Source: a virus
Reading direction: 5' to 3' (one strand)
Virus genome (UHGV): UHGV-0353264
Length of the DNA: 43,216 bases
The translations under genes were made by a program, and so were the position numbers. Every line of letters begins with the position of its first letter. The stretch's first letter is position 1. Positions 5,749-14,115 of the stretch are shown piece after piece. The notes below the pieces were generated by a model that was not told the origin of the DNA, did not search any database, and saw only the letters and a list, made by a program, of their open reading frames with translations.

Positions 5749-6510
5749 TTACGAGGAAGCGTTAGCTATTTGAGCTTGTGTAAATTCGAAACCAGAATTT
5801 TGTAACCGTTGCACTAGACGAGGAACTGTTTCACGTACATGGTCGTTGAAATTCAGATACAAAATCCCGTTAGCATCAGAAGGCTGTTCTAGATGCTGTT
5901 TCTGAAGGATTGCTACATTGCTGCGCCCTAAGGACGAAAGAAGCATACCCATCTCGAGTACAACGTTCTGTCTTGCGCGGGGTTGGATTTCTGCTTCACC
6001 GGCGCGCTTTGAGTATCCCATATCATCAGGTGTCAAAAGAACAATCCCGAAACGGGTAGCAGTTTGTCCTTGCCCAATTTCACGTTCAAGCTCTTCAATA
6101 ATGGTGAGTCCAGTCCCTCCCGTATTCTGCAAAATGAAATGGTCTGGTAATCCAAGTTTATGAAGGATTAGCTCAAGTTGCTCCTTTGCAGTATGGTCAT
6201 GGCCGTGAACAATGAATATCTTTTTGGGGAGCTCAGATGGCTGTTCTACGGCTAGTGGTGTTGCCGTGGGCGGCGTTCCTAAATGGGTCATTATTGCAGT
6301 TTCAACATTGGGACGTTCTTGAGGGTTACCTTGAAACTGAATGGTCCGGGTGGTGTAAAGGTTAACAATTACGCCATTCGTTAAACGATAGCAGTCACAA
6401 GTCTCACGCTGTTCGTGGGAAAAATTGGTGAACCCACACTCCCTCAAAAAGTCAGGAAAAGATTCTCTCGGGTATGGATAGGTGATCGGCATTTCAGTTA
6501 GTTCCTGCAT
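5749..6510 (-). CDS. TIR-like domain nucleotide-binding protein (PF10137-like C-terminal domain) with unknown N-terminal domain
   Basis: 253 aa; C-terminal KKIFIVHGHD...FGIVLLTPDD...ARQNVVLEMGMLLSSLGRSNVAILQK matches the TIR-like signature as recalled. Lower GC than flanking polymerase; possible own promoter (ttgata in the 64-bp gap after the polymerase gene). Confidence 0.6.
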   Translation of the reverse strand: MQELTEMPITYPYPRESFPDFLRECGFTNFSHEQRETCDCYRLTNGVIVNLYTTRTIQFQGNPQERPNVETAIMTHLGTPPTATPLAVEQPSELPKKIFIVHGHDHTAKEQLELILHKLGLPDHFILQNTGGTGLTIIEELEREIGQGQTATRFGIVLLTPDDMGYSKRAGEAEIQPRARQNVVLEMGMLLSSLGRSNVAILQKQHLEQPSDANGILYLNFNDHVRETVPRLVQRLQNSGFEFTQAQIANASS

Positions 6511-8684: not shown

Positions 8685-9314
8685 ATGCATATGATCCAAT
8701 ACTTGATTGACCATACAGAGCATCTGGAGAAAATAGCTGGATATATTTTTTCATGTTTGATTGTTATGGGAGTCTGGATAAGAAAGATCATTTTTAATTA
8801 TAAGTATAAAGAGCCTAAATATGTTAAGAAGTTAATTTTATATTTAGTTAAGTATGAACGTTATCTGGATGAGGAGGATAAGAGTGCCATAGAAAAAAGA
8901 ATAAATGATAAAATTATTCGTGATGCGCTGAAATTGCAATCCTCTTATAACCGAAGAGATGTTATTTACATTTGCAATAGATTAGACAAAAGACAGTATA
9001 TAAATCAGTTGGTTAAGCTTCAGAATTATATAGAGAAAGATAACGGAGTGTTTTTTATTAATGTTGATTTTTCAGGTTTTTTATTTATTATTAGTCGTCT
9101 GTTTTCCTTTCTGTGTTTTGTGCTGTTTACCCTTTTTTCTATTATCTGCATTATTTCCATAGGGCAAAATGAAGGCCTTTTAAATTATCTTGTGTATATG
9201 GTTATGATAATAGTTTTAGAGACTGTTGGTTTTTGGATGTATGATACTTTCCCGTCTAAGAAAAAGATCTGTGAACTAAATAAAGAATTGAGAAAGATTA
9301 AGATTCCTGAGTGA
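8685..9314 (+). CDS. AT-rich membrane protein of unknown function (moron)
   Basis: 209 aa; one N-terminal and two C-terminal hydrophobic segments; Lys/Tyr-rich; very AT-rich; opposite strand to the replication operon. Confidence 0.55.
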   Translation: MHMIQYLIDHTEHLEKIAGYIFSCLIVMGVWIRKIIFNYKYKEPKYVKKLILYLVKYERYLDEEDKSAIEKRINDKIIRDALKLQSSYNRRDVIYICNRLDKRQYINQLVKLQNYIEKDNGVFFINVDFSGFLFIISRLFSFLCFVLFTLFSIICIISIGQNEGLLNYLVYMVMIIVLETVGFWMYDTFPSKKKICELNKELRKIKIPE

Positions 9315-11234: not shown

Positions 11235-12137
11235 TTAACCCTCCAGTGCTTTTTCAGCCAGGGTGATTACTTCAGCGAGATTTTCATCCGTTACTTCACC
11301 AAGTTTCCTGGCTCCCTGTTTTTCCAGAATTGCAATAGCTTCTGCCCGGTAACCCCCTTTTGCTAACTGGAGGATCAACCCTTCAGCTTGTTTGCGTAGT
11401 GCCGCGAAATCAATTGTATGGTCATCTTTGGCGTCATTATTCTGGCTGGAATTTGCTGCGTCTTTGCGTGCAAATTCTTCCTGCAGCTGAAGGTACTCAA
11501 CACGGTTGATCTCGATATGGCCTTTTTTAAGCATCTCGTTCAACTTGCGTAAGGTGTGGAGTTCACTGGCTGCTGTGCCGGATACATTTTTGACGTAAAA
11601 CGGCCCCGTGCGTTCTCCATCTTTGTTACTGGCCTTTTTCGGCTTAACTTCATCACGCCCATCTGCAGGTGCATCAAGTAGCTGCTCGGCAAAAGCACGT
11701 CGCTCGCCGATGGTTGGCAGGTCGTCCCAGAACTTAAGAATGTTACGGGACAGGTCCAGGAGAGCAGGTTTAAGCAGCGCCCTGGCTCGTTTGACGCCCT
11801 GTAATGCGCTGTCGAGAGCATCAATCTGAACTACTCGTTTATCGCCTTCAGCATCACGGTAGGCAACAGCACGTTGCAGCATGTCTTCTGTGATAGGGGT
11901 GGCTACCGGGTAGAAACCAGCCAGTGCGATAACGTCGCTGAACTCCAGATCATCCAGTGTCATTGCCGCTGACATGTTTTCAGCTTCAGTTGCTGTATCC
12001 CGACATTCCTGCACTCGTGAAATCGTGTCAGGATGCATAACAATACCTGATGCCATTGTGCGGATAAGACGTTCAAGCAGCGCATTATGTTGTGCCAGAA
12101 GTTGATTATTAAGTTCGAGACTGGTTTCTAAACTCAT
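11235..12137 (-). CDS. Hypothetical acidic phage early protein
   Basis: 300 aa ORF in operon with replication genes; no recognisable motif. Confidence 0.55.
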
Positions 12138-12283
12138 ACTGTGGTCCTCGCTACAAGGAGAATGAAAGTGATGATCAGACCGAGCGCAGTGGCAACGGCC
12201 AGACCGGTCATCAAATCGAAGTTTTTACGGCGATAACGGAGAACATCGCGCCCCGTCAGTCGATGGATGTGTTCAGGTTTCAT
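12134..12283 (-). CDS. Small Arg-rich protein with C-terminal transmembrane helix (first gene of leftward operon)
   Basis: 49 aa ([49 protein letters not shown]); AAGGA RBS 9-13 nt upstream; ATGA overlap with the next gene. Not in the supplied ORF track (under 60 aa). Confidence 0.4.
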   Translation of the reverse strand: MKPEHIHRLTGRDVLRYRRKNFDLMTGLAVATALGLIITFILLVARTTV

Positions 12284-12496
12284 CGGTTGTATTCCTTTTT
12301 TCATATCGGGGAGCGCGCTGTTGCGAGTGCGCTTTCAGACATAAAAAAGCCCGTCACTTGAGGCGGGCAAAGGCTACACACAGCAATTACATGGATGTCA
12401 GTTTTAACCACGTCAGACGAGATGGCTCTCTCTGTACCCCTACAGCGAGAACTCGGCTAATATCTCTTTACCCCTATAGTTTTAGAGAGAATTAAG

Positions 12497-13021
12497 ATGT
12501 CTGAAGAAAAAGGACTTGTACGGCGTATAACTGAGGCGGCCACTAGTGCTGGTGGTGCTTTGAAAGGTGCTGTTGATTTAGCAAAAGAAGTTAATGCGTT
12601 GCAGGTGGATTACAATGTTAAAAGTAAAACTATCGATCTACTTGATAAACTAATTGATGCGCGTACTGGACAATTCGCACTAACGGAGCTTTTGAACGAA
12701 GCTAAACAGCGCATTGTTGAACTCGAATCCCTTCTGGAAAAGAAACAGGATTGGGATAGTGAGAAAATGAACTATGAAATGTACCACCCGATTACCAATA
12801 CGGTGGTCTATGTACTGAAGCCTACTGACGATCCTGAGTTCAAGCCTCATTATCTTTGTACTACATGCTATGAGTCGGGTATGAAGTCTATACTTCAATA
12901 CCATACTTCTAATGCCGCTTATAAAATTCTCAAGTGTCATAAATGCTCCGCTGAATATAAATTTCCCCGAAATATAGAAGTCAGTGGCAAAATTCCTGCA
13001 CCGTTACAACCTGCCAGATGA
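12497..13021 (+). CDS. Coiled-coil protein with C-terminal Cys4 zinc ribbon, unknown function
   Basis: 174 aa; CTTC...CHKC pairs; AT-rich; lies between the early operon start and the repressor gene, convergent with the repressor. Confidence 0.5.
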   Translation: MSEEKGLVRRITEAATSAGGALKGAVDLAKEVNALQVDYNVKSKTIDLLDKLIDARTGQFALTELLNEAKQRIVELESLLEKKQDWDSEKMNYEMYHPITNTVVYVLKPTDDPEFKPHYLCTTCYESGMKSILQYHTSNAAYKILKCHKCSAEYKFPRNIEVSGKIPAPLQPAR

Positions 13022-13373
13022 TTAGCAGTTCTCTTTGGTGGTGGTGTAGTGGTAGATGCTGAACTTCGGATTGACTCAATGGACTGATCTTCACCCCACC
13101 CCAAAAGGAACTAAGCGCCCCATCGTCGGGGCGTTTCAACTTGCGTGACTTATCAGTTTGTCGCGGTGTTGTCCTCTACGCTTACCGTACGCATACGGAC
13201 TCGGCGCTTACCTCGATCCCATCGGGTGCTATTTCGTTTTGCCAGGAGTACTGCGGCTTACCTGTCACGCGGTTCAGTTTGTTAAAGAGCCAGTATTAAA
13301 AAACGCATTAATTATGCGATATCGTATTTATATGCGTTATGGGATTTTTGTGTCAATACGAAAATGAATTATT

Positions 13374-13410
13374 TTGCAAATAAGAAAACCGCCCTTGTGG
13401 AGAGCGGTTT
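13374..13410 (-). terminator. Rho-independent terminator of the repressor gene
   Basis: Minus strand aaaccgc-tctccacaagg-gcggttt followed by tcttatttg, 30 nt downstream of the repressor stop. Confidence 0.6.
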
Positions 13411-13440: not shown

Positions 13441-14115
13441 TTAGTACATACGTAGCGCGGATTTGGCGATCCCCGCCACGTAATGGATTTTTTCAATGTT
13501 TTCGCGTGGTACTCTGACTGGTGGATGATCTTCATTTACAGACATTAGATGGAACAGGCCATCGCGTTCGAACAAGAAGGTTTTAACCATGACCTCACCG
13601 TCCCGGGTAACCACAAGTACTTCATCACCAGGAGTGTAGTCGTGGTTGGGTTCGACGATTACGAACTCCCCCTCTTTGATTCTAGGCATCATTGAATCAC
13701 CAACACATTTCAGGGCGTATGCATCTTCATCCTTTGTCGGCCAGTATATGAAACCATCACTGCTACCTACTGAATATTGGGTGTCGCTCCAAAGTCCTCC
13801 AACGCCTAGCTGAGTGTTTCCCAAAACAGGTACTTTATTAAACCTAAGAGAAATATACGTTTTTATACCTGTCGCGTCCTCTTTCTCCATTTCTTGAAGG
13901 CTCCTTTCTGCCAAGTCTATTGGTGACACGTGGAAGTAGTTGGCGATCTGCTTTAACGTTGCGTATTTCGGATCTTTCACCTCTCCTGATACCAGCCTGT
14001 GTAGCGTTGGTTGGTTCAGCTGTAACCGACGTGCCAGCTCAGTTATCGAGCTTATCTTGGCTTTGTCCATCAGGTACTTGATGTTTTGAGAAAGGATATC
14101 GGTAGTATCAATCAT
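13441..14115 (-). CDS. CI-like repressor (XRE HTH plus S24 LexA-like peptidase domain)
   Basis: 224 aa; N-terminal HTH (SSITELARRLQLNQPTLHRL), C-terminal GDSMMPRIKEGEFVIV and catalytic Lys context typical of autocleaving repressors. Confidence 0.9.
   Translation of the reverse strand: MIDTTDILSQNIKYLMDKAKISSITELARRLQLNQPTLHRLVSGEVKDPKYATLKQIANYFHVSPIDLAERSLQEMEKEDATGIKTYISLRFNKVPVLGNTQLGVGGLWSDTQYSVGSSDGFIYWPTKDEDAYALKCVGDSMMPRIKEGEFVIVEPNHDYTPGDEVLVVTRDGEVMVKTFLFERDGLFHLMSVNEDHPPVRVPRENIEKIHYVAGIAKSALRMY

Follow-up and report, generated by a model that had tools for sequence, protein, structure and literature searches.

The DNA analysed here, referred to as the window, is the 43,216-nucleotide stretch of the virus genome UHGV-0353264. 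Within it we focused on a 174-amino acid open reading frame (ORF) at positions 12497..13021 of the plus strand and on the two near-identical 11-mers that precede it. We find that this ORF is probably, at a rough probability of 0.8, a prophage gene for anti-phage defence, which belongs to the Rip1 (ring interacting pore 1) family and occupies the sieB slot under a PsieB/sas-type cassette. This assignment rests on comparisons of sequences and of a predicted structure. The initial annotation had already proposed the ORF and its transcription toward the repressor gene. Both were verified, including the ATG start and the identity of the convergent gene as a repressor gene (Table 1).

A phmmer search against the PDB sequences matched residues 3-159 of the ORF product to residues 3-160 of chain 9oox_L, which is named ‘ring interacting pore 1 (Rip1)’ (E 8.4e-45, 155.6 bits). 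The same structure was recovered when the AlphaFold2 (AF2) model of the protein was compared with the PDB using Foldseek. Chain 9oox_M (E 5.5e-11, probability 1.0, target-normalised template modelling score 0.63) and chain 9oox_L (E 3.6e-10) were the leading matches, and the next-best one had an E of 0.78. The entry 9OOX is entitled ‘Cryo-EM structure of the Escherichia phage HK446 Rip1 in complex with the Enterobacteria phage T6 small terminase’. In tblastn searches of phage genomes we obtained HK446 gp37 with 47.5% identity (E 5e-43) and ev099 with 48.1%, as well as HK620 hkaP with 27% (E 4e-4) and the Pseudomonas phages D3112, DMS3 and JBD30 with ~30%. HK620 hkaP carries the annotation ‘putative superinfection exclusion protein’. 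Searches of the ORF protein gave no SieB or Rex hit in Pfam and no SieB hit in PHROGs. In an all-against-all BLAST of the proteins encoded behind this type of cassette (the cargo proteins, see below), the ORF protein fell into a 32-member Rip1/HkaP cluster, apart from the 87-member SieB cluster. Judged by these comparisons, the protein is unrelated to RexA, RexB and SieB, and the ORF is very likely a defence gene of the Rip1 family. The slot had initially been likened to those of rexAB/sieB-type exclusion genes. The comparison with the sieB slot stands, given the 82% PsieB homology described below, the Rip1 family and the hkaP annotation.

Rip1 has been described as a one-protein system of prophages, which combines sensor and effector and is non-toxic alone (PMC13434031, on Patel et al. 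2026, Nature 651:1060). According to this review, escape mutations map to the portal protein when the phage infects Pseudomonas and to the small terminase when it is a coliphage, and in the HK446/T6 structure 12 Rip1 subunits encircle an 11-mer of the small terminase. The N-terminal part of Rip1 contains amphipathic helices, and the C-terminal half makes the contact to the ring. The assembly forms a pore, with dye release from liposomes and early lysis of the cell, and relatives are widespread in proteobacteria, mainly in prophages (PMC13434031). The mechanism is additionally covered in PMC12908700.

The AF2 model of the window protein (alignment of 11 sequences, mean predicted local distance difference test score (pLDDT) of 77) comprises two short helices (residues 4-16 and 22-34), one long helix (39-92) and, at 93-157, a small beta domain. 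Four cysteines in this domain, C121, C124, C147 and C150 (CxxC...CHxC), were invariant across 11 homologues with identities down to 45%. The model and the invariant cysteines back the helix plus Cys4 zinc-ribbon architecture that had been suggested in the initial annotation. The two N-terminal helices were modelled with low confidence (pLDDT ~50-58). The helical hydrophobic moment peaks in residues 1-24 at 0.43-0.49, which is moderate, and the N-terminus is conserved with HK446 Rip1. No stretch of the protein was hydrophobic enough to span the membrane, the mean hydrophobicity of every 18-residue window being at most 0.20.

Pfam, NCBI-style naming and PADLOC returned no match for the ORF, and PHROGs placed it in phrog_1244, an unnamed family of unknown function (E 2e-43). 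A word-indexed protein search found just 17 close relatives, every one of them unnamed. An exhaustive profile search returned 2,713 clusters at E<=1e-3, and the family is therefore large. In the phages vB_EcoM-689R2, 606R2 and 611R5 the flanks of the gene are 94-98% identical to those in the window, yet the gene that they enclose is another allele of this family, with 44% identity; the divergent 689R2 allele is also assigned to phrog_1244. As far as these alignments go, the conserved flanks around a divergent allele mark the rip1-like ORF as a swappable, fast-diverging accessory gene. The window corresponds, at 100% identity, to a prophage of Escherichia coli IAI1. Its region 12300-13140 is 100% identical to the chromosome of strain IAI1 (NC_011741, at 2.753 Mb) and 98% identical to enterotoxigenic E. 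coli (ETEC) H10407, O103:H2 strain 12009 and about 20 further complete genomes. Altogether, ~27 of 5,426 complete E. coli genomes carry this allele of the rip1-like gene, including the three strains named. It is the only gene between two transcription units that oppose each other and is, like Rip1, a single prophage gene. A terminator scan did not flag the hairpin behind it (13115..13137), which we list as a probable weak terminator.

We then turned to the region upstream of the gene. A sensitive DNA search with positions 12300-12520 matched 126 phage records. The 78 nt at 12402-12479 align to P22 with 82.1% identity (E 1e-11) at a spot annotated ‘sieB: promoter’. In the P22-pbi record a ‘P sieB’ feature (L004:1531-1561) lies between ral and sieB; sieB opposes the PL operon, and gene 24, nutL, PL and c2 are found farther on. 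P22 sieB is listed among the functions expressed from the prophage (PMC10883804). The hexamers of the corresponding promoter in the window were read from the sequence. Transcription is predicted to start at ~12468-12471, with a 5' untranslated region (UTR) of ~27 nt that contains a weak Shine-Dalgarno sequence, GAGAG, at 12485-89. The same cassette is present upstream of lambda sieB, HK620 hkaP and HK446 rip1. When IMG/VR was scanned for pairs of the motif separated by 18-30 nt, at least 120 loci matched, and 5 of those listed were unrelated coding repeats. Among the matches listed, and including reference phage loci that we added, the genuine cassettes amounted to 54 unique variants. The cargo was defined as the ORF that comes first behind the second motif of a fetched locus. 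Among the 121 fetched loci with a readable ORF, the cargo was SieB in 87 (~72%), Rip1/HkaP in 32 (~26%; the window, 689R2, HK620 and HK446 included) and another protein in 2. Read from these loci, the PsieB/sas cassette is a portable control unit for two unrelated defence cargoes.

The two 11-mers do exist, although their coordinates in the initial annotation (12436-46 and 12472-82) were off by 1 for copy 1 and by 3 for copy 2. With their flanking bases they make up a longer direct repeat of 17 nt (12429-45 and 12463-79, 88% identical, 34 nt apart). Within the window alone the pair is not significant, since at least two matches to the 11-mer occurred in 12 of 100 shuffles. We regard it as real because it is conserved elsewhere: both 11-mers recur at the same 33-34 nt spacing in P22, lambda, HK620, HK446 and ~115 of the 120 IMG/VR loci listed. 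Copy 1 lies inside the perfect palindrome CTGTACCCCTACAG (CTGTA-CCCC-TACAG, 12432-12445), the apex of a longer hairpin at ~12427-12450 that is backed by covariation and by single-sequence folds; the minus strand reads CUGUAGGGGUA here, with a GGGG loop. Within the sas-like antisense RNA, the complement of copy 2 supplies the first CUAUAGGGGUA, and a homologous copy is found inside the sequenced P22 sas RNA. In both copies the ten bases ACCCCTACAG are near-invariant, while their surroundings are all variable.

On the minus strand, the cassette corresponds to the sas antisense RNA of P22. The sequence of that RNA (P22A-sas; 2026 RNA-seq study, PMC13397905 Table 2) runs leftward from the sieB start codon and has both CUGUAGGGGU motifs inside. 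Reviews on the work of Ranade & Poteete (1993, Genes Dev 7:1498) state that sas and the sieB mRNA pair and that SieB translation is turned off when P22 superinfects. The sas-like region of the window is complementary to the start codon, the Shine-Dalgarno sequence and the 5' UTR of the rip1-like gene, and it continues with the hairpin of the second motif and two interleaved helices of the pseudoknot type. These three helices were tested on an alignment of 24 diverse cassettes in minus-strand reading, namely the hairpin presenting the second motif (UUCUCG...CGAGAA around CUGUA-GGGG-UACAG) and, downstream, the interleaved CCAC/GUGG and GCCUG/CAGGC. Pairing was found in 95% of the cells, compensatory changes occurred in 5 of the 15 pairs, and none of 500 shuffles was as good. 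When the helix partners were slid against each other, pairing fell to 31-49%. The minus-strand reading contained 13 G.U cells and 329 paired cells out of 346, compared to 317 on the plus strand, counts that give a mild preference for the antisense strand as the structured RNA. The hairpin of the first motif forms in most variants, and it has no column-wise covariation score because the register of its stem shifts between lineages. Neither by eye nor by scan did we find a sigma-70 promoter for a separate minus-strand RNA in the first 70 nt of the ORF, and a promoter scan revealed no promoter-like site on the minus strand at 12305-12500. A candidate FliA promoter on this strand (TAAA-N9-GCCGA) was ruled out on its spacing.

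The promoter of the early-left operon lies on the far side of the rip1-like gene. Perfect matches to the operator-like 13-mer TTATGCGnTATCG are limited to two sites, 13312-24 and 14150-62, of which the second adjoins the cro-like gene; a copy with two mismatches is present at 13330-42. About 30 nt downstream of the PL-like promoter we found a boxA-like GGCTCTTTAACAA, promoter and boxA together falling within 13280-13357 of the minus strand, and the PL/OL region adjoins the terminator of the repressor gene (13410..13386). Lambda, P22 and HK620 share this layout, with PL beside the repressor gene. An N-like ORF is not evident in the interval from the PL-like promoter to the rip1-like gene. With PL at ~13312-13357, early-left transcription must therefore cross the rip1-like gene and the sas region in antisense. 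The initial annotation had placed the start of the leftward operon in the repeat region; this is correct for its first coding sequence, starting at 12283 or 12304, but not for the start of transcription, which maps to the PL-like promoter.

Binding by the repressor and Cro had been raised as a possibility for the 11-mers. We consider the 11-mers to be conserved parts of the cassette, and it is unlikely on sequence grounds that they are operators for CI or Cro of this phage. They are near-invariant across phages with different repressors (P22 c2, lambda cI, HK620 cI), and the motif is kept in P22, lambda, HK620 and HK446, whose immunity specificities are unrelated. Moreover, the operator-like 13-mer of this phage differs from the 11-mers and is placed elsewhere, at PL and PR. 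In a wider form of this explanation, the 11-mers would be DNA sites of some regulator, either CI/Cro or a conserved transcription factor of host or phage that binds at the -35 and +1 of the PsieB-type promoter. Indeed, both motif copies are near-invariant though the flanking stems, the -10 hexamers and the cargo vary, which RNA complementarity leaves unexplained. The perfect palindrome of copy 1 (CTGTA-N4-TACAG) is embedded in a near-palindrome of ~24 bp over the -35, a shape typical of operators, and the helices pair barely better on the minus than on the plus strand. A purely DNA-level role is, however, difficult to reconcile with the compensatory changes and G.U pairs in the surrounding helices and with the detection of both motif copies in RNA of P22. 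We judge regulator sites to be an improbable explanation for the 11-mers. Since sense/antisense complementarity alone does not require the invariance of ACCCCTACAG, a trans-acting factor or contacts of RNA polymerase are a natural suspicion. Among known regulators, LexA was rejected, as its box is CTGT-N8-ACAG and the spacing here is CTGT-N6-ACAG. CRP was rejected as well, since the spacing TGTA-N4-TACA is wrong for a CRP site.

For a Rip1-type defence gene under PsieB/sas control we propose the following course of events. In the lysogen, CI would repress PL and PR, and the rip1-like gene would still be transcribed from the weak sigma-70 PsieB homologue. The Rip1-like protein would build up in an inactive and non-toxic form. 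Upon superinfection, late expression of the invader would provide rings of small terminase or portal protein, and these would nucleate the Rip1 ring, with the Cys4/beta domain touching the ring of the invader. The N-terminal amphipathic helices would then form a pore in the inner membrane, and the cell would die or lyse before the progeny of the invader mature. The events during superinfection have been shown for Rip1 homologues and are transferred here to the window protein. Upon induction of the prophage, PL would fire, and the leftward transcript would cross the rip1-like gene, yield the sas-like RNA and stop Rip1 synthesis. In P22, sas blocks SieB translation, as stated in the reviews on Ranade & Poteete (1993). 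By this analogy, we lean towards antisense control that works as in P22.

It has also to be considered that the protein might serve the cycle of its own phage, as a zinc-ribbon regulator that binds nucleic acids or as a packaging or lysis-timing factor that works with its own terminase. In Mu-like Pseudomonas phages, the genes of Rip1 homologues have that of the small terminase on one side and that of the large terminase on the other (PMC13434031), and the positions of our tblastn matches agree with this. Zinc ribbons often bind nucleic acids, and no PADLOC model matches the protein; however, PADLOC-DB from 2023 predates the description of Rip1. Against a role in the own cycle, the gene opposes the early operon, and its promoter is a homologue of one that drives a gene in the lysogen. 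Furthermore, it belongs to a swappable cassette in which it alternates with SieB in the same slot, and it shows full-length homology to a protein that was shown to defend against phage. We regard this role as very improbable. Slightly less probable still is a SieB/Rex-like action, in which membrane depolarisation would abort the infection on an early event of the invader without sensing of late rings: slot and promoter/antisense cassette are the same as for sieB in P22 and lambda, and HK620 hkaP was called a putative exclusion protein from its position, but the cargo proteins form two separate BLAST clusters, SieB or Rex hits in Pfam and a hydrophobic transmembrane stretch are lacking, and the direct homology is to Rip1, whose known triggers are late proteins.

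Several points nevertheless weigh against a Rip1-type defence gene controlled by a PsieB/sas cassette. Identity to the characterised HK446 protein is just ~47%, and with about half of the residues differing, the window copy may have another trigger specificity. The basis for the Rip1 mechanism is the review PMC13434031 together with the title of the PDB entry 9OOX. The PsieB hexamers are weak (TGTACC; GCTAAT or TAATAT). With respect to the RNA, the window allele lacks 11 nt (GCGAATGCCTG or TCGAGTGCCTG) at 12392-12402 compared to ETEC H10407 (L003) and 689R2 (L001). This deletion takes the GCCUG arm of a covarying helix, which is still present in H10407 and 689R2, and leaves GCCUG/CAGGC at 3 bp in the window; the second-motif hairpin and a CCAU/GUGG helix are kept. 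The antisense RNA part may hence be impaired in the window. In addition, a single-sequence fold of 12335-12500 on the minus strand (166 nt) was no more stable than shuffles (z -0.44). The alleles of the window and of H10407 also show changes in the partner arms (CAGAC, GAUGGCU).

Table 1. Features of the rip1-like locus (positions in the window)
Feature	Position	Strand	Details and basis
rip1-like gene	12497..13021	+	174 aa, ATG start; ORF list; RefSeq WP_001288045; phrog_1244; PDB 9OOX homology
PsieB-type promoter	12433..12464	+	-35 TGTACC 12433-38; -10 GCTAAT/TAATAT 12456-63; alignment to P22-pbi ‘P sieB’
Repeat copy 1	12435..12445	+	TACCCCTACAG; sequence search; overlaps PsieB -35
Repeat copy 2	12469..12479	+	TACCCCTATAG; sequence search; at predicted 5' end of rip1 mRNA
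sas-like antisense RNA region	12402..12500	-	P22 homology, P22A-sas sequence, covariation
Processed-RprA-like module	12343..12388	-	46 nt; seed AAUUGCUGUGUGUAGCCUUUGCCC, terminator hairpin 12368..12349, U6; Rfam and alignment to RprA
First early-left gene, phrog_11981	12134..12304	-	RefSeq start 12283 (49 aa); directly downstream of RprA-like terminator
Probable weak terminator of rip1-like gene	13115..13137	+	hairpin CGCCCC-ATCGTC-GGGGCG then TTTC, read from sequence; low confidence
Early-left promoter PL	13312..13357	-	TTGACA 13357..13352, 18-nt spacer, TATAAA 13333..13328; overlapped by operator-like 13-mers 13312-24 and 13330-42
Repressor gene, CI-type	13441..14115	-	helix-turn-helix (HTH) and Peptidase_S24 domains

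A separate lead came from the minus strand, where a module resembling processed RprA follows directly 3' of the sas-like region and lies 5' of the first early-left gene. The Rfam model of RprA (RF00034) matched 12441..12339 with 46.0 bits (E 3e-4), below the gathering score of 70, and the alignment is confident over model positions ~60-108 only. As reference we used the E. coli RprA sequence, which 5,422 genomes contain at 100% identity under the annotation rprA. Compared to its last 47 nt, 12388..12343 has 38 of 46 positions in common. In the single-stranded stretch AAUUGCUGUGUGUAG(U/C)CUUUGCCC, 23 of 24 positions match the RprA seed, and one of the differences in the terminator stem is a compensatory change from A-U to G-C. 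Processed RprA consists of exactly those last 47 nt and is active alone (PMC9262595). The terminator of the module (12343-12368) is strong and stands in the path of PL transcription toward the first early-left gene. Near the module we also noticed a perfect 9-nt inverted repeat (12334-12342 and 12497-12505, TTCAGACAT / ATGTCTGAA), by which the minus strand, just past the RprA-like terminator, begins with the same bases as the opening three codons of the rip1-like gene. This is probably chance, with ~0.1 such repeats expected in 221 nt and no conservation in other loci.

Scanning IMG/VR with the 14-mer ATTGCUGUGUGUAG yielded 90 unique contexts. In 72 of these the sequence runs into a hairpin and a T-run, and 48 of the 72 retain YCUU next to it. 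The seed-plus-terminator module is hence found in at least 72 unique IMG/VR contexts, all unannotated and at varied prophage positions; one sampled copy separates the gene of a CI-like repressor from the early genes, and one class of contexts scores as DicF. Among 5,426 complete E. coli genomes, 176 contain the module, likewise without annotation. A CACAACA-rich stretch that precedes the module in some loci had raised the suspicion of the AgvB/AsxR anti-sRNA class, which was dismissed, as the published AgvB, AsxR and EcOnc03 differ (...GUAUCUCAUGCUAUUGCCCGAACCC...). A search for targets of the RprA-like seed within the phage found none, and nothing relevant on a prophage RprA-like small RNA (sRNA) turned up in our literature searches. 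Two loci of the 14-mer scan (L130 5721-5964 and L137 13834-13981) showed Rfam matches to RalA (225 bits), to SraC/RyeA with SdsR, and to an STnc100-like RNA near a DicF-like module; flanking host sequence or further sRNAs of prophages may account for these matches.

The RprA-like module may be a simple leader terminator. It may also be a phage-borne imitation of a host sRNA that is made from the same transcript that silences rip1. More specifically, firing of the early-left promoter would release 12388..12343 as a trans-acting sRNA of the Hfq type that mimics RprA and takes over part of its regulon, and AUUGCUGUGUGUAGUCUU with hairpin and U-run would mark such RNAs in the early-operon leaders of many unrelated prophages, some of them DicF-like. 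We put this forward tentatively and consider it possible rather than probable. If true, it would reveal a widespread and unannotated class of phage-borne mimics of host sRNAs, and it would raise the question whether rprA itself arose from such a module.

The neighbouring genes were compared with the RefSeq annotation of IAI1, which describes the surroundings as a prophage. Leftward genes here encode a TIR-domain protein, a DNA polymerase, DUF2815, DUF2800 and two hypothetical proteins. Rightward genes are WP_001288045, the ORF described above (‘hypothetical protein’), and those for a Cro-like protein, a VapE primase, antiterminator Q, holin and lysozyme. The leftward HTH/S24 repressor gene is placed between WP_001288045 and the Cro-like gene. 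The TIR-domain protein (253 aa, 5749-6510, minus strand), encoded beside the phage DNA polymerase gene, is a second candidate for defence in the same prophage; it matches Pfam CAP12-PCTIR_TIR (E 2.9e-31) and the PADLOC candidate system PDC-S35 (E 7e-109). A 209-aa ORF (8685-9314, plus strand) is opposed to its neighbours, the genes for DNA polymerase and DUF2815, and has a hydrophobic C-terminal half; Pfam and PADLOC gave no match for it. It is possibly another inserted accessory gene.

With these data, a RefSeq ‘hypothetical protein’ becomes nameable as a Rip1-type abortive-infection defence. Prophages that carry the gene would gain a predictable phenotype, i.e. resistance to those phages in which the protein recognises rings of small terminase or portal protein, and synthesis of Rip1 is predicted to be switched off by the antisense RNA when the carrier phage goes lytic. 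The paired ACCCCTACAG motifs offer a simple sequence handle for finding exclusion genes expressed from prophages. The Rip1 protein family and the PsieB/sas cassette are already known; the RprA-like module is the sole part that might surprise specialists, and it gives a lead of its own on how phages may imitate small RNAs of the host.

Compared to known systems, the RprA-like module of the window shares 38 of 46 nt with processed RprA, and it lies in the early operon of a prophage, like DicF in the Qin prophage. It differs from RprA by the absence of the 5' 60 nt with the rpoS-pairing region and by its location away from the rprA locus, and no RcsB-type promoter is evident. With the sieB loci of P22 and lambda, the window shares the slot, the orientation against the PL operon, the promoter and antisense regions, both CUGUAGGGGU motifs and, in part, the downstream helices. 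The differences concern the cargo, since SieB is a membrane protein and the window encodes an unrelated soluble protein of helices and a zinc ribbon, and the RNA domain, which carries the 11-nt deletion in the window allele. In comparison with sieB/esc/sas of P22, no in-frame Esc-like product is annotated in the window, and none was searched for. HK620 hkaP encodes a protein of the same family (27% identity, clustering with the Rip1 group) in the same slot and behind the same cassette; its sequence is far more divergent, and its function was inferred from position alone. The HK446 phage differs from the window phage, which is of another type with replication genes for PolA, DUF2800, DUF2815 and VapE. 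In HK446, N lies between PL and rip1, and none is evident in the window; the RprA-like module follows the cassette in the window and is absent from HK446. The two Rip1 proteins themselves, 174 aa in the window and 164 aa in HK446, are full-length homologues with ~47% identity, and both have the long helix and the Cys4 beta domain as well as the N-terminal helices, which are predicted at low confidence for the window protein. The slot of the gene, too, is shared: in both phages it is flanked by the N/PL region and by the early-left genes, with the PsieB/sas cassette upstream.

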